A stretch of DNA of 64,000 nt from a virus: positions 40,681-104,680 of the IMG/VR virus record IMGVR_UViG_3300037258_000147; one strand, given 5' to 3'. The translations under genes and the position numbers were made by a program. Below the pieces are notes generated by a model. The model was not told the DNA's origin. It did not search any database and was given only the letters and a program-made list of their open reading frames with translations. Below, piece by piece: positions 17,898-40,190 of this stretch (position 1 is its first letter; each line of letters begins with the position of its first letter).

Positions 17898-17982
17898 TGG
17901 AGGAGAGCAGCCGAATCGAACGGCCATCCCGAAGGAGCCCCGGTTTTCAAGACCGGATGTATCACCATCAACAGTGCTCTCC
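17898..17982 (-). tRNA. tRNA-Ser(TGA), probable 8/4 fold
   Basis: GGAGAGCA/TGCTCTCC 8-bp acceptor, GCCG/CGGC 4-bp T-stem. Confidence 0.8.
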
Positions 17983-18065
17983 GAATATAACATGACAAGT
18001 TATAAAAAGTCAAGGTCCTATATATGGGTCGTTAATCCACTATACGACCTATATATGAACCAAAA

Positions 18066-22924: not shown

Positions 22925-23500
22925 TTCAGGTTCTTGTGTTAACTACTTAAATAACATTTGAATTCATTGTTATTTATTTAATTACTAATTTTTATTTTAA
23001 GTTGTTTGTTATCAGCGAGTCGATGATTAGGGGTTATTTAAATTTGGTGTTTACTATTTAAATAACATTGTTGTATTTCTGATTGGGGATTTCAAAAGTG
23101 TTTTCCCGAGTTTTTGGAGACTTTTTAAACTTTTTTGTTTATAACAAAGAAGTTAGGATGTGTTTATCAATTAGTTACTAGGGTCCACTGAGATGAAAGA
23201 GAGGTTGCTAGGTCACTGGTAGCCGCTCGGCACTCCTCAAGGGGGTTAGGCCGCCCGTACCTGGCTTCTCAATCTAGGGTCCCCTAAGTCTTTTGTACTG
23301 AGCAACTTAAAACCTTGTCGAGTGTACTACTAGACATACTCTCTGTCTATACCTCGACCTAGTTCCGTCACACTTTCGTCTCAATCGTGCGTATATCATT
23401 GATATAAAAGGCCGATTGATAACGAACGTTGTAGATGGCCGATTGGGCCGTCTGTCCGATACCCTAGTTGCTCTAGGCTATTCTGTAGAAAATATAGTCA
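22925..23500. other. AT-rich non-coding segment before the strand switch
   Basis: No ORF of 60 aa or more; very AT-rich at 22940-23160. Confidence 0.6.
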
Positions 23501-23507
23501 TGTAACC

Positions 23508-23753
23508 CTATCCCCGCGTCCCCAGGACATTAGGTCTATCCCCTGCTACCGTCTTAATGCGTGCTAATCGCGGTTTACGGTAGGCTTTAACCCGTTTGAT
23601 GGCGGACAGTTGACGTGTAGCGTCTAGTATCTGCTCTGTTGAGGACGTCATATCCTCTATTATCCTAATCAGAGCTAGTTCCATTCTTTGGGTTAGGGTT
23701 TTAGGCATTATGGGCGCTATAGGGTGCGTGCGGTAACGGGCTGGTAGAGCCAT
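23508..23753 (-). CDS. Hypothetical basic protein
   Basis: First leftward ORF from the divergence point; start uncertain. Confidence 0.4.
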   Translation of the reverse strand: MALPARYRTHPIAPIMPKTLTQRMELALIRIIEDMTSSTEQILDATRQLSAIKRVKAYRKPRLARIKTVAGDRPNVLGTRG

Positions 23754-23912
23754 TGCGGTTCGGCGCGGGAGTGGTCCCTGAATGTACGATAGTACGCGCG
23801 ATTGCCAGCCCGAGCTTAAGGTTGTCATATACTTATACGGTAATAGCGCGCGGATTTTTCACTATTCCGGTAGTTTTCCACAAACTATTTTCAAACTATT
23901 TTCAGAATTCGC

Positions 23913-23941
23913 TTGACACGTGGCTTGGACTAGCCTATATT
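23913..23941 (+). promoter_or_regulatory. Early sigma70-type promoter
   Basis: TTGACA-N17-TATATT at the start of rightward genes. Confidence 0.7.
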
Positions 23942-24209
23942 CGCTCTTGTCAGGCGCAGTTATGGCTTGCAGGGAATAGGAGTAAGAAGGGCACAAGCAA
24001 AGTCTTTCGACCCGTACGATTACGCGGTCGAGTTGGGAGCAACGGAATTCCGTGGGGGAATCAATTGGACTTGGGTAACCTTCACGGAAGAGGATACACG
24101 GCAGAAATTCGATGCCGAATGCAGGCGGAATGGTTATCGGGTCCGGGATTACGGCGAGTGTAAGACGCAATACCATCATTATCAAGACTAGGATGAAACC
24201 GGCCTAGTG

Positions 24210-24264
24210 CCGTAACGCGCCTATGTCCAGTCTCCAGTCTGGAATGAGAGAAAGCGGAGAGCGG
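24210..24264 (+). ncRNA. Putative twister (P1-type) ribozyme
   Basis: CCG-TAA-CGC...TCCAG-TCTCCAGT-CTGGA...GCG-GAGAG-CGG; P1/P2/P4 and L4-L1 pseudoknot TCTC/GAGA. Confidence 0.6.
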
Positions 24265-24272
24265 AGGAAAAC

Positions 24273-27042
24273 ATGAAATTAGTAATCGAGATCGACTTTG
24301 GCAATGACGCTATGCAGCGGTATTCACAAGCGCGCGCCGTTATCCAAGACGCGGTAGGCACGTCCGGGTACCGCGCGAAACCGCATATAGGCGATTCCGG
24401 ATCATTGCGGGACGTGAACGGGAATCGGGTAGGATTCTGGGAAGTAGAGGAAAACTAACATGCAGCGCTTTGAATATGTGATATGGGGTTTGCCGAAAGA
24501 TTCGACAGACCCGATTGACGAAAAGGTGCTATACACTCAAGCTAAGAATGAGGCGGATATTGAACGGGTTAAAGAGCGTGCGGCGCAGATACGGCTGGCA
24601 CTCCTTTCGTATCCAGATTCTGGATTTGAAAGATATTCCCGATTTTTCAGACCCAAAGCTCATTAGCTAACGGAGGAAAACATGCAAGCAACTTACCACG
24701 ATATGACTCCGGCCATCGGGCAGAAGGTAGTGGTCCGATTTGAAGAGATCGGTGTTAGCTGCCAAGTAGTCAATGTCAAGTCATCCTACGGTCGTATCCG
24801 GTTACTCGTTTCCCCGGAGCTTGGAAATGGGGAGCAATGGGTGGAATTATCCCGGGTCAGGCCACGATCTAACGAAACGGCTATTGTAGCCCGCTAACCC
24901 GTCCATTTTGTGGACAAAATCGAGGAAACAAAGGAGTTACGGAGATGAACGGAATGAATCCAAAGGAAATGGGGTATTCGGATGCGGCAAACTCTGTCGC
25001 ACCGAATTCCAATCAAGCCCTGTTTAACCGTCAAGAGTATATCGACGGGTACGCACAAGGCAGTATAGATAGAGATGCCGACAATTCCATTCTGTACGAG
25101 GTAATCATTGGAAACATCGGCACAGTGTACAGCGGAAAGGATGGGTTTGAGGCATTCAAGCGGTTTCAAATCTATTCAGGACAATCTAAGGGTAATTATG
25201 GGCGTGCAACGGGCGAAGACGTTACGCTCATGAAAAATGGGGAAATACGCAAGGAATTTATCGGATCAACGTCACGCGAACAGACGGAGGATTAACCGGG
25301 CCTTGCCCGTAACGCACCATTGCCCGATTCCAAGCTCGGGATGAGAAAGACGGAGGACGGAGGAAATATGGATTACTTGGACACTAATCGAGTAGTGAAG
25401 CGGGTCATCTCGGAGGTGGGAGGAACAATCGCCACTAACGGGATACAGGAATTGTCGCGCGAGGAGCGTGGCGGAATCAGCACGTTTGGGTACGTCCGCA
25501 CATGCCTCTATGCCACGGCATACAACGCGGTTAGGGCAATGCCTGGGTTTGATATGTCCTATAACGAGTTTTGCATGGCGGTCGATCAGGAAACGAAATT
25601 AAGTCTGAGTTTTTATCCGGCAAACGCTAGACGATAACATGAAATCTCCCCTATTAGCAATCTCAGCTTTTATCCTTGCGCGCATATTGTTTGTTTTGAT
25701 GACGCGTAAACGTAAACTCTAAACCTTGTCCAGAAAATGGACGGCGCGCGCCGGAGAAACCTTGACACTCTCAGTAGACTCTCTAGCATTTATTGGAATC
25801 CTTACCTGTTTGGGATTCTTGGCGGCCATCGGCTTGGGTAAGCTGTATGGCTGGATTTTTAACTAGTCCAGAAAAGCGAGTAACCATGCCTAAGCTCCTA
25901 CGCGGCGTCTTCTACGCTCTAACCTTCGAGCTATCGGCAGCCGGTTTCCTGTATGCTGTCTACCGGTTTTTCCTAAGTCTGAATTAGTCCGAAAAATGGA
26001 CTGATTCCTAACAAGAGAATGTCTCACGGCGCAATGAAAGGACCATCAAATGATAGCACGTAATAGGTTTATGGCTGCATCGAAAGAACAAGCACTAGAG
26101 CGGATGGAATATCAGTCTGTAATGTGCTTGGACCAAGTAGCAGCGGTAAACGAATGGCCGTGGATATACACAAACGCGCAGGTACTCGCCGAAGCTTGTG
26201 CGCATTGGGCTTTTGCGGCATATCCCGAATTGCGAGTGAATGACGATTTTTGGCAAAATTAATTCACCTTACGGCGAAAGAGAGAGAGACTGTATGCGTC
26301 TGACAATTCAAGTTTTTCAAAATGGGGAAGCGGTCGGGGAATATGTAGCCAATTTTCCGAAGGAAACAGAGACGGAAGCCGTTGACTTGTTTCTGCAACA
26401 TGCACGCATCGATCTACGGTATCGCTTTCTAGGGGAATACGGATTCGTCCAACCGTCGGAAAAGTATTATCTGGTGCTGGCATGAAACCACCGAAGAAAT
26501 GCAATTGCTACGTCCACGCAACGGCAGATTACACTAAGCATTCGCGGGATGCGGTTTTAATCCGTAGGGTTCGACGCGCTGGGCTAGAGCAAGCAAGAAA
26601 GTGCCGAATCAGAGCACAAAGCGAGAGTGACCAGAAAGAGAAAAACTATTTGGAAACCGTTGCTATCTGTGCCGAATGGGAGGCTTGGGTCTGCTTAGTT
26701 CATCTCCGAGACATCAAGGCAAACCGGGCATACGAGAAAAGTTAGTCCATTTAATGGAAAACCTGGAGTTTTATGGGTCATTCCGCGCGCAGCATATTGC
26801 CTGACCGCCACCGGGCGTTAACCCGGTACACTACCGCAGAGGCAATCAGCCTCATGGAGACGGACATGACATACACGCTGATCATGATCAACGAGCAGGG
26901 CGCATCGGAAGAAACCCGCTACCTTATCAGCAAGGCTGATGTGCGCCGCCAAATTCGCACATGGGACGCCAAAGGCATGACAGCCCGCGTTTACACGAGC
27001 GATGGTGAGTGCGTATATGACGGCTCAGCGCTCTCGTTTTAA
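24273..27042 (+). other. Cluster of small early hypothetical genes (24273-24458, 24460-~24690, 24682-24897, 24945-25295, 25368-25637, 26050-26262, 26294-26485, 26482-26745, 26866-27042)
   Basis: Co-oriented short ORFs, most with GGAGG-type RBS. Confidence 0.7.
25307..25360 (+). ncRNA. Putative twister (P1-type) ribozyme, second copy
   Basis: CCG-TAA-CG...CCCGA-TTCCAAGC-TCGGG-ATGAGAAA..CG-GAGGA-CGG; covariant with the first copy. Confidence 0.55.
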
Positions 27043-27366
27043 CCTTCGCCGCGCGGTATCCACCGTAAGCGGAGCGTCCGCCGTGGTAGGCGGGGCCGGT
27101 AAATTTAGTCCATTTTTCGGACAAAACTCGTTGACAAGTCTATTTACCCATGATAGGGTGTAACCAAACGAAAAGGGGAAACCATGTTCCTGCTTCTAGT
27201 TGTACTGTTAACCTTCGGCGGTATGCACGGGCCGGTAACTCACCCGAAAACCCCGCCGCTTACCTTTCGCTGGAAATAGACCGTTGCCGGATCGTAACCG
27301 GCTCTCAATGCAGCCGCCTTACGGCGAGAGTCACAAGCCTCTATAAATGCAGAGTGGGGAGGAAAT

Positions 27367-27780
27367 ATGGAAACGGAGAAGGATTTTCAAACGGAAGCTA
27401 ACGAGGCAGGCGAAAGGTTTGTTGAGGCGGCCCGTGTGCTGCTCGAAACGCTACGCAAGGCTGAAGAAAAAGAGGACGAAGAGGTCCAAGACGATATTAC
27501 CCAAGAAATTGAGGAGTATCCGCTTTCTGTCTTGGTACGGTCTGGATGGTACGTTCCCGGCCAAAACACCGAAGACAACAAGCCAGAAGAATACGAGATT
27601 TTGCTTGGGACGGGCGGCCCAGCTTCTCGGATCGTGGGCCGGTTGGATGAATATCTACAGCCCGGGACAGCAACCTTCGAATACCAAGACTGGTTCAAGC
27701 CTTGGACGGCGGCGAAATTGAGCGGGGAGCAGAAAGGCATATTGCTTGAGTTCGCCTCTCATTTCTGGTTCGGCGAGTAA
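27367..27780 (+). CDS. Acidic conserved phage hypothetical protein
   Basis: YEILLGTGGPA.RI.G.L......EYQDWF..W pattern; GAGG RBS. Confidence 0.75.
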   Translation: METEKDFQTEANEAGERFVEAARVLLETLRKAEEKEDEEVQDDITQEIEEYPLSVLVRSGWYVPGQNTEDNKPEEYEILLGTGGPASRIVGRLDEYLQPGTATFEYQDWFKPWTAAKLSGEQKGILLEFASHFWFGE

Positions 27781-27815: not shown

Positions 27816-28499
27816 ATGAAAATGGATATCAAGAATCTAGAGGATGTGGTTATTTACACATCCGCACTGCTCACAATCAAAGACGCTCTAGTAGAGGCTG
27901 TGTTAAAACGCGCGAACCTGTGCGGCGCGAACCTGTACGGCGCGAACCTGTGCGACGCGAACCTGTGCGACGCGAACCTGTGCGGCGCGAACCTGTACGG
28001 CGCGAACCTGTACGGCGCGAACCTGTGCGGCGCGAACCTGTACGGCGCGAACCTGTACGGCGCGAACCTGTGCGGCGCGGACCTGCGCGGCGCGAACCTG
28101 CGCGGCGCGAACCTGTACGGCGCGGACCTGTACGGCGCGTACCTGAGCGGGACTAAAAATTCAGACATTGCTTTATCTCGGATTCAATTCATCCCGGAAA
28201 CGGGAAGTTTTGAAGCGTGGAAGAAATGCGCGGACGGGGTTATTGTGAAGCTGCTCATCCCCGAAGATGCGGAACGTTCCCACGGAGCAGAACGGAAGTG
28301 CAGAGCCTCCAAAATTGTCGTATTGGATGTATTCGGAGCGGACTACGGCGTATCTGGCGGTGAATATGGAAAGATTGAATACCGCAAAGGGCAAACGGTG
28401 GAGCCAAAAAACGGATGGAACGAGGACCGTTGGACAGTCTGCGGGGCTGGTATCCATTTCTTTCTCACTCGGGCGGAGGCCGAAAACTACGAGTTTTGA
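27816..28499 (+). CDS. Pentapeptide-repeat protein with DUF5758-like C-terminus
   Basis: (ANL[CY]G)n from 15-bp repeats at ~27912-28150; GSF.AWKK...IPEDA.R...RKCRAS...C..GIHFF. Confidence 0.9.
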   Translation: MKMDIKNLEDVVIYTSALLTIKDALVEAVLKRANLCGANLYGANLCDANLCDANLCGANLYGANLYGANLCGANLYGANLYGANLCGADLRGANLRGANLYGADLYGAYLSGTKNSDIALSRIQFIPETGSFEAWKKCADGVIVKLLIPEDAERSHGAERKCRASKIVVLDVFGADYGVSGGEYGKIEYRKGQTVEPKNGWNEDRWTVCGAGIHFFLTRAEAENYEF

Positions 28500-36980: not shown

Positions 36981-39169
36981 TGGACAAAGTGTGGTTGGAC
37001 TACGAAAGCCGAAGTACGGTTTCTCTAGAAGAAAAAGGATTGGATAATTACGTCAAGGGGCCTACTCAGGTCCTGCTTGCGGCCTACGCCTTTAATGACT
37101 TGGCTCCTAAGCTGTGGCAACCACACCTTAGCCCAGAGATGCCTAAGGACCTGAAAGACGCCCTACTCGACCCCTTCATGCAAGTCTGGAGTTGGAACAC
37201 GAGTTTCGAACGACAGGTAACCAAGCACGTTTTAGGCATTGACAAGCCGATTGAAGAATGGCGGGACCCGATGTGCAATGCTCGGTATCTGGGACTTCCT
37301 GGATATCTGGAAGACGCCGGAAAAATCCTCGGGCTCAAAGACTCCCAAGCCAAAATCAAAGATGGTAGCCGACTAATAAAGTTGTTTTGCGAGCCTGTTG
37401 ATTCGGGTGGCCGAGAAACTCTGTTTGGAATCTCAGAGCCGACATTCAATAGCTGGCACACCCACCCAAAGGATTGGGAATTGTTCTGTAAGTATTGCAA
37501 ACAAGATGTGGTTGCGGAAAGAGTGCTTGCCCAAAAAATGTCGAAGTTTCCTCTTCCTCAGGAGGAACTAGAGACTTGGTTCTTGGATCAGCATATTAAT
37601 GCACGGGGATGGCCGGTAGATTTACCCACGGTCGAAGGTGCTCGGAAAATTGTCGAATTAGAATTGAAACCCTTAGTAGCCCGTCTGAAAGAACTAAGTG
37701 GATTGGACAATGTAAATTCTAGAAACCAAATCCTGGAATGGGTTTCGGAGCGCGGATACGTCTTCTCAAGTCTTGGTAAAGATTTTGTTGCGCGCGCGCT
37801 TGCTGGGGAATGTAATCTAACCCCAGAGTGCCGAGAGGTTCTCGAAATCCGAGGACAAACCGCAAAATCTAGTGTGTCTAAGTACACAGCTTTAGCCGAT
37901 ATGACCTCCTCAGACGCTAGGATACGTCACCAGTACACCTATTACGGGGCACATACAGGCCGATGGGCCGCGCACGGCGTAAACATGGGTAATTTGTTTA
38001 AGCCGACAAAAGAAGTTGAAAATAAACTGGGCTTGGCCGTTAATCTTGTCCGAAAAATGGACTTTGAGGCAATACGAAAAGAATTTAGCAAGCCTATGGA
38101 AGTCGCTGCTTCGGTCCAGCGGTCGGCCTTTCGAGCCCCTGAGGGTTTTAAATTCGTGTGGGCGGACCTCGCGGGCATCGAAAACCGGGGGCTAATGTAT
38201 CTCTCTCATTGCGAGGCCCTAAAGAAGGTCTACGAAGGAAAATTTACCTACTACGGACCCGACTGTCCAGAAAAAGAAATATTAAACGGACAAGAGTTCG
38301 CGCTAGACCCGTACCTAATGTTTGCTGTTCGCATGTTTAATATGAGCTACCGCGATTTATGGATAGAGTGGAAAATCAAGGGGGACAAGACCAAGAGAGA
38401 TTTGTGCAAAGCTCCTGTACTGGGCGGAGGATACGCTCTCGGAGCCGGAGAAGAAGAGATAGATAAAAAAACTGGACTACCATACTGGACCGGTTTGATG
38501 GGCTACGGAAGAAAAATGGGAATCGAAATCCCCCACGACTTAGCCGAGCAATCTATCAAGGTTCTCCGCGAAGAATGGAACGAAGTTGTCTGGCTCTGGA
38601 AAGACATGGAAAAAGCCTTCGCATTTGCTGTCCGGCATCCTGGTCATTTAACCGGGGTTGGGTTGCCTCATACCAAGCGAGAGGAGGAATATTTCGAGGA
38701 AAAGGGCCGGAAAATTTATGAGCCGATAATCTCGTTTCTGTGTCATGGTGCCAAAATCCTTGAAATGATTCTGCCGTCTGGACGGTCTTTATTTTACTTT
38801 GACCCCCGAGTAGCGTTTGAAGAAAAAGAATGGAAGGGAAGAAAATACCAGCAAGACACGCTGTACTACAAATCCAAGGACCCGAAGACCAAACAATGGG
38901 TGGAAATGGATACGTTTGGGGGCCACTTGGTTGAAAATGGGGATCAGGCTATATGCCGAGATGTGCTGGTCCATGGGATGAAAAAAGCGGATAAAATGGG
39001 ATTTGAAATATGCGGGTCTACATATGACGAGGTGATTACCTTAGTTCCTTTAAACAGTCCTCTTGGGGTAAAAGAACTTTGCGAGTGCCTTACCGACCCG
39101 CCTCTGTTTTGTGGACTAGATTTGCCGTTAGCCGCCGAAGGAATTGAGGATTTCATCTACCATAAATAA
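36980..39169 (+). CDS. Family A DNA polymerase with 3'-5' exonuclease
   Basis: LDYES exo I, YC.QDV exo III, HTGRW, ADLAGIENR (A), K..VLGGGY (B), TYDE (C). Confidence 0.9.
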   Translation: MDKVWLDYESRSTVSLEEKGLDNYVKGPTQVLLAAYAFNDLAPKLWQPHLSPEMPKDLKDALLDPFMQVWSWNTSFERQVTKHVLGIDKPIEEWRDPMCNARYLGLPGYLEDAGKILGLKDSQAKIKDGSRLIKLFCEPVDSGGRETLFGISEPTFNSWHTHPKDWELFCKYCKQDVVAERVLAQKMSKFPLPQEELETWFLDQHINARGWPVDLPTVEGARKIVELELKPLVARLKELSGLDNVNSRNQILEWVSERGYVFSSLGKDFVARALAGECNLTPECREVLEIRGQTAKSSVSKYTALADMTSSDARIRHQYTYYGAHTGRWAAHGVNMGNLFKPTKEVENKLGLAVNLVRKMDFEAIRKEFSKPMEVAASVQRSAFRAPEGFKFVWADLAGIENRGLMYLSHCEALKKVYEGKFTYYGPDCPEKEILNGQEFALDPYLMFAVRMFNMSYRDLWIEWKIKGDKTKRDLCKAPVLGGGYALGAGEEEIDKKTGLPYWTGLMGYGRKMGIEIPHDLAEQSIKVLREEWNEVVWLWKDMEKAFAFAVRHPGHLTGVGLPHTKREEEYFEEKGRKIYEPIISFLCHGAKILEMILPSGRSLFYFDPRVAFEEKEWKGRKYQQDTLYYKSKDPKTKQWVEMDTFGGHLVENGDQAICRDVLVHGMKKADKMGFEICGSTYDEVITLVPLNSPLGVKELCECLTDPPLFCGLDLPLAAEGIEDFIYHK

Positions 39170-39182
39170 TCCAGATCGCGGA

Positions 39183-39209
39183 TTGACAACTCGAAACATG
39201 TGGTATAAT
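39183..39209 (+). promoter_or_regulatory. Sigma70-type promoter
   Basis: TTGACA-N15-TATAAT with TGTGG extension. Confidence 0.65.
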
Positions 39210-39227
39210 GCGAACAAAGGAGAAAAA

Positions 39228-40190
39228 GTGGAACATATCCCTTTCCCCGAAATTCATCAATTTCGGAACACGATTAGAACTGTGCGAGAACGAGCAGAAT
39301 GCGACGGAGTTCCTCTTCCAATCATTACTTTTGTGGGATCGGTGAAATTGCACGGAACTAACGCTTCGATTGTGTTTCCCGAATCGGGAGGGTACTATTG
39401 TCAGTCTCGCTCTCACGTAATCACACCAGGACAAGACAACGCTGGATTTGCTCGTTGGGTCGAAAACAACAAAGAATTGTTCGAGCGTCTAGAGAAGTCC
39501 GGAGTGATTCTATATGGAGAGTGGTGCGGGCAAGGAATTCAAAAGGGCGTGGCCATATCACATATGCCGAAGAAATTCATCGTGTTTTCTGTCCGAAAAC
39601 TGGACAATTTGTCTTGGTTTTCCAAACTGGGGGTCTGCGTCCTGCTGGAAGGGTTACTTTGTATCTATGATTATCCAAATTGGACCTTGGATATTGACTT
39701 TTCTCGTTCCGAGGACTCTCAGAATCGCTTGGTAGAATTGACCACTGCTGTCGAAACCGAGTGCCCTGTAGGAAAGGCTTTCGGGGTTTCTGGAGTAGGA
39801 GAAGGCGTAGTTTGGTGGCCTGAATCTCATCCGACATTCAACACCGAGGGGTTGGCCTTCAAGGTAAAGGGAGAAAAACATTCCGAATCCAAAGTAAAGA
39901 GTCTAGCTTCCGTGGATGTGGAAAAATTGGAAACCGTCAAGGAATTGGTAAACACAATCATAACCGATCACCGTTTGGAAAAGAAACTAGATTCTCTCCA
40001 AGAGCGAGGCATTTCTTTTGACATCAAAAATACTGGGCAGTTTCTAAAGCTGATAGGGGCCGACGTTTGGAAGGAAGAATCTGACACCATTCTGGCCTCT
40101 GGATTCAAAGAAAGCGAGATCATGGGAGCCGTCCAGAAACGGGCGAAACAGTGGTGGATGGAGCAACTAGCGAATGTGGCCGTGGTCTAA
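39228..40190 (+). CDS. RNA ligase (Rnl2-like)
   Basis: KLHGTN (motif I), YGEWCG.GIQK, GEGVVW, FKVKGEKH; GTG start after AGGAG. Confidence 0.8.
   Translation: MEHIPFPEIHQFRNTIRTVRERAECDGVPLPIITFVGSVKLHGTNASIVFPESGGYYCQSRSHVITPGQDNAGFARWVENNKELFERLEKSGVILYGEWCGQGIQKGVAISHMPKKFIVFSVRKLDNLSWFSKLGVCVLLEGLLCIYDYPNWTLDIDFSRSEDSQNRLVELTTAVETECPVGKAFGVSGVGEGVVWWPESHPTFNTEGLAFKVKGEKHSESKVKSLASVDVEKLETVKELVNTIITDHRLEKKLDSLQERGISFDIKNTGQFLKLIGADVWKEESDTILASGFKESEIMGAVQKRAKQWWMEQLANVAVV

Follow-up and report, generated by a model that had tools for sequence, protein, structure and literature searches.

Probable P3-less twister-class ribozymes between the cistrons of a phage operon and their relatives in viral and metagenomic contigs

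The window analysed here is a stretch of 64,000 nucleotides (nt), bases 40681-104680 of the IMG/VR virus record IMGVR_UViG_3300037258_000147 (104,680 bases, estimated to be 97% complete), from an uncultured phage of ~105 kb. Two homologous elements of its plus strand (24210-24264 and 25307-25360), together with a third at 27302-27360, are considered here, with a probability of roughly 0.8, to be self-cleaving ribozymes of the twister class, whose cleavage would punctuate the mRNA of the rightward small-gene operon that contains them. The elements are a further well-supported instance of the twister class and not a new kind of element; what is unusual about them lies in the details, namely a subfamily that scores below the database threshold, an overlap between the upstream hairpin (P0), the helix P1 and the Shine-Dalgarno sequence, a pseudoknot (T2) with wobble pairs only at its outer position, and the coexistence of the P1 and P5 permutations of the twister fold.

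The two elements and a covarying family

Copies 1 and 2 of the element are ~80% identical when aligned. Each starts with CCG-UAA and ends with a CGG that runs into AGGAAA(A)-N-ATG, the ATG lying 7-8 nt downstream, and both had been placed, with these termini, at the same positions by a first-pass annotation of the window. The compensatory changes quoted there are likewise real on alignment: P4 changes from UCCAG/CUGGA in copy 1 to CCCGA/UCGGG in copy 2, and the loop L4 matches GAGA in the former (UCUC...GAGAG) and GGA in the latter (UUCC...GAGGA). A pattern made of the conserved blocks found these 2 sites alone in the window, and 100 shuffles that preserved dinucleotides gave no match. The first-pass annotation overlooked the upstream hairpins that overlap the CCG, the third twister at 27302-27360, and C24235, an off-consensus residue in the loop of copy 1 at the A.A pair of the pseudoknot T1, where 44 of 46 relatives have A.

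Two scans of IMG/VR with exact patterns yielded 6 and then 8 loci. The fixed-length pattern TAAYGCRCCNNTGNNNNNTYYCNAGYNNNNNA, which leaves P1, P4, the 3' strand of P2 and the 3' strand of T1 free, matched 29 loci in IMG/VR and at least 120 metagenome loci, for a total of at least 106 distinct sites, and the complementarity of P4 was bimodal among the matches listed, 51 having 5/5 pairs and the remainder 0-4. The same pattern gave 39 matches in 596 Gb of prokaryote genomes, with at most 4/5 pairs, i.e. background, and so no clue to the host; the P3-less subfamily is, as these searches show, restricted to viral and metagenomic contigs. A covariance model built from six members (R1) was run over 49 loci, where its 55 matches comprise 48 distinct sequences (alignment A4) and include second and third copies on a contig that the pattern had missed. 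Several contigs carry 2-3 twisters, 400-1500 nt apart (L068 at 982-1037, 1354-1407 and 1844-1899; L148 at 23-76 and 1553-1605; L001 at 6938 and 7886), and the subtypes on one contig are often mixed (A.C with G.U in T2, or a P2 of 3 with one of 4 base pairs, bp).

The family unit fills the gap between two open reading frames (ORFs) of the same strand, and it always points the same way as the genes on either side. In 41 of 51 distinct family contexts an ORF of 35 codons or more starts 7-37 nt (median 10) after the ribozyme, and in 37 of the 51 the stop codon of an upstream ORF precedes the cut by 5-45 nt (median ~15). The unit is thus positioned between cistrons.

Covariation was tested for the twister structure with both pseudoknots on the 48 distinct sequences of alignment A4. 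Paired cells make up 95.5%, compared with 73.3% in column shuffles, none of 500 of which reached the observed value, and 32-47% when the partners were slid; double-change cells number 180 where 49.7 are expected. Compensatory changes occur at every pair of P1 (3/3), P4 (5/5) and T1 (3/3), the paired fraction being 95% for P1 and 100% for P4, and the P2 pair 7-49 is CG in 32 members and UA in 15. P1 is found as CCG/CGG, UCU/AGA, UCC/GGA, CUC/GAG, CUU/AAG, UAC/GUA, GCU/AGC, CCCUG/CAGGG and others, and T1 as CUC/GAG, UCC/GGA, CCC/GGG, CCA/UGG, CAC/GUG and UCU/AGA (pair 24-54: CG 38, UA 9; pair 25-53: CG 24, UA 20, AU 1; pair 26-52: CG 42, AU 2, UA 1). The search model R1 did not include T1, so the alignment carries no bias towards this pseudoknot. 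No type-P1 member departs from UAA at the cleavage site or from G-A at the catalytic position; the inner C-G pair of T2 (47 of 48) and, within L4, the U and the A vary little or not at all. These residues match the guanine that acts as general base (G45 in the Oryza sativa twister Osa-1-4), the U-A step that is cut and the U.A pair by which P4 is extended (PMC6154101, PMC5408937). The twister fold is under selection in this family.

Table 1. Ribozymes and associated features of the operon, in window coordinates.
Feature	Position	Strand	Details
Sigma-70-like promoter candidate	23913..23941	+	TTGACA-17-TATATT; 11/12 consensus positions; consensus match only
P0 hairpin of twister 1	24200..24212	+	CGGC-CUAGU-GCCG; minimum-free-energy (MFE) fold, -4.2 kcal/mol; co-varies among relatives; 3' strand includes the CCG of P1 and ends 1 nt before the cleavage-site U
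Twister 1 (P3-less type P1)	24210..24264	+	R1 74.1 bits; family covariation; P1 24210-12/24262-64; P2 24216-18/24254-56; P4 24226-30/24239-43; L4 24231-38; T1 24232-34/24259-61; T2 G24219.U24238 and C24220-G24237; catalytic G24257-A24258; predicted cut U24213/A24214
Shine-Dalgarno GGAGG and ATG 24273	24263..24275	+	GGAGG overlaps last 2 nt of P1; opens 61-aa (amino acid) ORF 24273-24458
Upstream ACGGAGGA copy	25284..25291	+	Identical to the P2-3'/GA/T1 strand 25350-25357; in last codons of ORF 24945-25295
P0 hairpin of twister 2	25297..25309	+	CGGGC-CUU-GCCCG; -7.0 kcal/mol; overlaps 5' strand of P1; co-varies with copy 1 and relatives
Twister 2 (P3-less type P1)	25307..25360	+	R1 77.5 bits; RF03160 17.2 bits; family covariation; P1 25307-09/25358-60; P2 25313-14/25351-52 and C25315-G25349, bulged A25350; P4 25323-27/25336-40; L4 25328-35; T1 25329-31/25355-57; T2 A25316.C25335 and C25317-G25334; catalytic G25353-A25354; predicted cut U25310/A25311
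Shine-Dalgarno GGAGG and ATG 25368	25359..25370	+	GGAGG overlaps P1; opens 89-aa ORF 25368-25637
P0 hairpin of twister 3	27286..27302	+	GCCGG-AUCGUAA-CCGGC; -7.5 kcal/mol
Twister 3	27302..27360	+	RF03160 52.2 bits, E 8.6e-9 over the whole window; cut-off 67.2

The third twister of the operon is nearer to the canonical form, with a P3 (27315-18/27323-26), a P2 of 4 bp (UGCA/UGCA), a Watson-Crick T2 (GC/GC) and an L4, UCACAAGC, that faces GAGUG; P3 is lacking in ~20% of twisters, Osa-1-4 included (PMC5408937). The presence of C27306 in place of U ahead of A27307 can be accommodated because the -1 nucleotide of twisters is not conserved (PMC5408937). Twister 3 sits in a leader of ~230 nt and is followed by GGAGG and the ATG at 27367 of a 137-aa ORF (27367-27780), and all three twisters have a P0 hairpin on their 5' side and a start codon 7-8 nt after their 3' end. 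Genome searches revealed no copies beyond these three: R1 over the whole virus genome matched copies 1 and 2 only, and the Twister-P5 model RF02684 found nothing above 10 bits there. A degenerate copy was considered at 27221-27260 (GGGCCGGTAACTCACC) and dropped, as it is without P4 and L4.

Three loci retrieved by the fixed-length pattern (L023, L024 and L060) have GCA-GAGGG on the 5' side of a long hairpin that ends at the UAA, and L024 scores 54.2 bits with RF02684, above its gathering cut-off of 37.6 bits. That the same pattern retrieves these loci indicates that the P1 and P5 permutations share a hairpin-UAA-P2-T2-P4 body. Both layouts occur in one phage lineage with a common CTAGAAAGGAATGGAAC start region (L023, L024 and L060 as against L053, L117 and L060:2300). 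The ACGGAGGA string upstream of copy 2 lies 5 nt from the hairpin and may be left over from a type-P5 layout, or may have arisen by chance. Similar upstream strings, each matching its own T1 type, were seen at L040 and L113 (GGAGGA) and at L001:7886 (GGAGAG), and L024 has the P2-3'/GA/T1 strand on both sides, which hints that the permutation might have come about through a duplicated strand. As a separate observation, L007 (6095-6135, minus strand) shares the 21 nt ACCGTTGCCGGATCGTAACCG found upstream of twister 3 (window 27280-27300), after which it has a P3-less twister like copy 2 and not a P3-bearing one; this suggests that ribozyme cassettes may have been exchanged at one locus.

The P0 hairpin and the outer pair of T2

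A GC-rich P0 hairpin stands directly upstream of the ribozyme in ~45 of the 51 family contexts. In one arrangement (L008, L027, L100, L049, L117 and others) the hairpin ends 2-4 nt before the U of the cleavage site and a co-varying P1 is present alongside it; in the other, which characterizes the largest class including copies 1 and 2, its 3' strand ends in the CCG of P1 itself. By nearest-neighbour energies, computed for the nested parts, the P0 conformer is more stable than the P1 conformer by 2.3 kcal/mol in copy 1 and by 4.9 kcal/mol in copy 2. Since twisters can cleave without P1 (PMC5408937), the ribozyme probably does not need P0 to open, and the Shine-Dalgarno sequence would then never be masked. 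The proposal of the first-pass annotation that folding is coupled to translation initiation through P1 is weakened by the same circumstances, since the 3-bp P1 shares its CCG with a stabler hairpin and can be dispensed with. The invariance of CCG/CGG in the largest class is explained by the overlap of P1 with GGAGG.

P0 hairpins have been found in 10-21% of twisters, with no known role (PMC6154101, PMC11662667). Their near-universal position here, directly after a stop codon, suggests that the upstream product of cleavage has P0 as the hairpin at its 3' end. P0 was also considered as an intrinsic terminator, which was rejected as no U tract follows it, and as the true P1, which fits the type-P5 loci L023 and L024, whereas L008, L027, L100 and others hold both the hairpin and a co-varying 3-bp P1.

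In canonical twisters a conserved GC after P2 pairs with a GC of L4 to form T2 (PMC5408937). Among the 42 distinct members with a 3-bp P2, the outer pair of T2 is G.U in 23 (as in copy 1), A.C in 18 (as in copy 2), A-U in 1 and G-C in none, the pattern having admitted all four. On a rough tree, which rests on ~55 nt and was built without the two T2 columns, the state of T2 changes at least 8 times. Because G.U and A.C wobble pairs share one shape, it looks as if a wobble pair has been selected at this position, which is that of the conserved G-C pair of canonical twisters. The first-pass remark that P2 and T2 are weaker in copy 2 holds for the pairing itself (2 pairs in P2 and a bulged A25350, and the A.C in T2), but relatives share both traits. 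Residue R10 was tried as part of a fourth P2 pair and rejected, its partner being mismatched in most members.

Proposed cleavage and the competing explanations

If the elements act as twisters, L4 would dock after transcription on the GA-NNN strand (T1) and on the RC dinucleotide after P2 (T2), and transesterification at U24213/A24214 and U25310/A25311 would be catalysed by the A that follows the scissile bond together with the invariant G (24257, 25353). The upstream RNA would then end in a 2',3'-cyclic phosphate 1 nt after the P0 hairpin, and the downstream RNA would start with a 5'-OH and a folded ribozyme 3 nt before the Shine-Dalgarno sequence. Neighbouring cistrons might be uncoupled in this way, with P0 shielding the 3' end of the upstream piece and the ribozyme fold shielding the 5' end of the downstream piece while leaving the ribosome-binding site free, as with synthetic ribozyme insulators. 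A role in intercistronic processing would fit the order of stop codon, hairpin, ribozyme, Shine-Dalgarno sequence and start codon that is found in most of the relatives. Cleavage in vivo, these parts of P0 and the 5' fold, and the timing of expression are matters that we infer.

Several points weigh against this interpretation. Copy 2 scores only 17.2 bits with the twister-P1 model RF03160 (E 1.9, in E-value mode over 1.27 kb), far short of the 67.2-bit gathering cut-off, and copy 1 has no match at E<=10. Nested folding by MFE gives z-scores of 0.1-0.25 for the three elements, and the folds of copies 1 and 2 lack P2 and P4, a result that is uninformative because the twister fold is a double pseudoknot. 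The A.C pair lies in a 2-bp pseudoknot in copy 2 and 17 relatives, and most non-wobble mismatches in that pseudoknot were harmful in a large in-vitro survey, in which P0 hairpins also lowered cleavage, 0.40 vs 0.85 (PMC11662667). The roles proposed for P0 and for the 5'-OH fold, moreover, rest on general knowledge of RNA decay and not on this phage.

The Infernal comparison with twister-P1 that the first-pass annotation named as a check thus did not reach the gathering cut-off; at gathering thresholds Rfam reported only ~20 tRNAs over the window, and its E-value search found no other ribozyme class. Copy 2 nevertheless aligns with RF03160 over the full length of the model, with the P3 of the model deleted, and L008 scores 21.7 bits over the full model. 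The family shows that the cut-off of RF03160 passes over an entire P3-less phage subfamily. The twister assignment is upheld by other routes, namely the covariation of ~48 relatives, the relatives that pass the type-P5 cut-off and the third twister of the same operon. A search of 23500-26500 with blastn against 50,697 phage records gave no match. As to the deviations, twisters tolerate a G.U pair in the 2-bp pseudoknot, a change from A to C at the A.A pair, a P2 with bulges or mismatches, and the loss of P1 (PMC11662667, PMC5408937).

The alternative that survives best, though we consider it unlikely, is that both copies, or one only, are derived from twisters but no longer cleave, and are kept as structured leaders that stabilize the downstream mRNA or position the ribosome. 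The 2-bp P2 with its bulge and the A.C pair of copy 2, the C24235 of copy 1 and the in-vitro effects of mismatches and P0 hairpins just cited could all be taken in this sense. The invariance of the catalytic G-A and of the UAA over ~48 distinct relatives is, however, hard to explain without catalysis; A.C occurs in 18 diverse members and swaps with G.U at least about 7 times on the tree, which speaks for selection and not decay, and the A-to-C change at the T1 A.A pair, as in copy 1, was tolerated in the CHiTA survey (PMC11662667). It is far less probable that the elements are extended translation-initiation signals or protein-binding operators at the Shine-Dalgarno sequence and that their likeness to twisters is incidental. 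Each copy does adjoin a Shine-Dalgarno sequence and start codon, and the largest class always has CGGAGG at its end, but covariation backs five helices, two pseudoknots among them, in the exact twister topology, members whose start codon is 20-37 nt away, or that have none near, retain the whole fold, and relatives pass the Rfam twister cut-off. That the elements are a repeat at the DNA level, serving recombination or regulation, or are alike by chance can hardly be entertained in spite of the abundance in the window of another DNA palindrome, GTCC-N7-GGAC, given that the shuffles contained no pattern matches, that G.U pairs in the helices occur on the sense strand only, that the elements always have the orientation of the flanking genes and that the 596 Gb of cellular genomes yielded only non-pairing background.

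Operon context and comparison with known systems

The promoter candidate of Table 1 heads the rightward operon, in which a 74-aa ORF is followed by twister 1, three small ORFs and a 116-aa ORF by twister 2, and more small ORFs by the leader, twister 3, the 137-aa ORF and a pentapeptide-repeat protein. Farther downstream lie integrase-family, PolA-like, RNA-ligase, RecT, nuclease and primase-helicase genes. The small ORFs that flank the twisters belong to no known families and received no function from PHROGs; the early timing of these genes is plausible as a reasonable guess from the operon layout. The protein with pentapeptide-like repeats (ANLYG/ANLCG) is encoded by ORF 27816-28499, which matches phrog_7713 (E 6e-37) and contains a 15-nt tandem repeat of ~16 copies (27850-28194). 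The GTCC-N7-GGAC palindrome (GTCCAnnnnnTGGAC) is abundant throughout the window, mostly in intergenic spacers of the operon and elsewhere (for example at 24899-24922, 25721-25753, 25976-26004 and 27106-27129, the last followed by TTGACA), and in the relative L139 it stands directly after the ribozyme, in place of the Shine-Dalgarno sequence and start codon. The genome has more than 20 tRNA genes, and a tRNA-Sec-like match lies in the tRNA array (17901-17983, minus strand; 44.7 bits against an Rfam cut-off of 47).

The RNA ligase family gene (39144-40190, plus strand; PF09414, E 1.6e-15) lies in the rightward gene block of the twisters. The substrates of RNA ligases are RNA ends, and cleavage by a ribozyme yields 5'-OH and 2',3'-cyclic-phosphate ends; a connection between this gene and the ribozyme ends is speculative.

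Among known twisters of type P1, the elements most resemble the P3-less Osa-1-4 (Roth et al. 2014; RF03160; 4OJI; reviewed in PMC6154101 and PMC5408937), with which they share the order P1-UAA-P2-(G/A)C-C-NNU-G-P4/L4-J-P2'-GA-T1'-P1', an L4 of the form U-YYC-A-A-G-Y, the catalytic G after P2', the A after the scissile bond, two pseudoknots and a short junction in place of P3. They differ from Osa-1-4 in a P2 of 3 and not 4 bp, in the G.U or A.C found in place of the conserved G-C as the outer T2 pair, in a T1 that is often C-U-C/G-A-G and in a P0 that is nearly always present and often overlaps P1; their Rfam scores are 17-22 bits against the cut-off of 67.2. The type-P5 twisters of phage contigs (RF02684) are nearly the same from the hairpin on (hairpin-UAA-YGC-RCC-NNUG-P4 with UCCCAAGY), but there the P2'/GA/T1' strand is 5' of the hairpin and the hairpin is P1, whereas here that strand is 3' of P4 and the hairpin is an extra one (P0) or competes with a 3-bp P1.

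The twisters with P0/L0 tested by CHiTA likewise have a hairpin immediately 5' of the ribozyme and tolerate G.U wobbles, bulges and P1 defects, but P0, whose role was called unclear, occurs in ~10% of those candidates (PMC11662667) and in ~45 of 51 contexts here, right after the ORF stop codon. In synthetic twister and hammerhead devices for the 5' untranslated region (UTR) the ribozyme is also directly upstream of, or overlaps, the Shine-Dalgarno sequence, and once it has cleaved, the RNA upstream is gone and the remaining transcript begins with a structure (Felletti et al. 2016, PMC5052635); a type-P1 twister with the Shine-Dalgarno sequence in P1 gave 5-fold more reporter in E. coli when active than when inactive (PMC5052635). 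Those devices are engineered and mask the whole Shine-Dalgarno sequence (PMC5052635), whereas only 2 of its nt can pair here in a 3-bp P1, which is probably displaced by the competing hairpin. Small self-cleaving ribozymes known from polycistronic mRNAs of bacteria and from the vicinity of phage genes similarly lie between or ahead of genes, and a role in processing, differential stability or translation has been proposed, and not proven, for them (PMC6765202). Hammerheads in the 5' UTRs of RNA viruses, which are small ribozymes ahead of genes and are themselves needed for translation, represent a eukaryotic, cap-independent case (PMC13725137). Among engineered elements, RiboJ-type insulators are another analogue.

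The twister might, as a tentative and rather doubtful extension of the above, have been rebuilt in this phage lineage as a compact intercistronic cassette in which P0, P1 and the Shine-Dalgarno sequence share nucleotides and the outer T2 pair is an obligatory wobble (G.U or protonated A.C). Were this so, the CCG strand would move after the cut from P1 into P0 and make cleavage irreversible, the upstream mRNA would keep a 3'-terminal hairpin with a one-nucleotide cyclic-phosphate overhang, and the downstream mRNA would have a 5'-OH folded cap beside a fully free Shine-Dalgarno sequence. A wobble T2, with Watson-Crick pairs avoided, could tune the rate of cleavage to pH or Mg2+, and the requirement for it would amount to a rule of twister structure that has not been described.

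The family bears on the role of bacterial and phage twisters (PMC6765202) and on that of the P0 hairpin (PMC11662667). It constitutes a natural T2 series (G.U, A.C, one A-U and no G-C) with which the requirements of this pseudoknot can be probed, and its dozens of natural variants in one fixed layout of stop codon, P0, ribozyme, Shine-Dalgarno sequence and start codon make the idea of processing and insulation a directly testable one.

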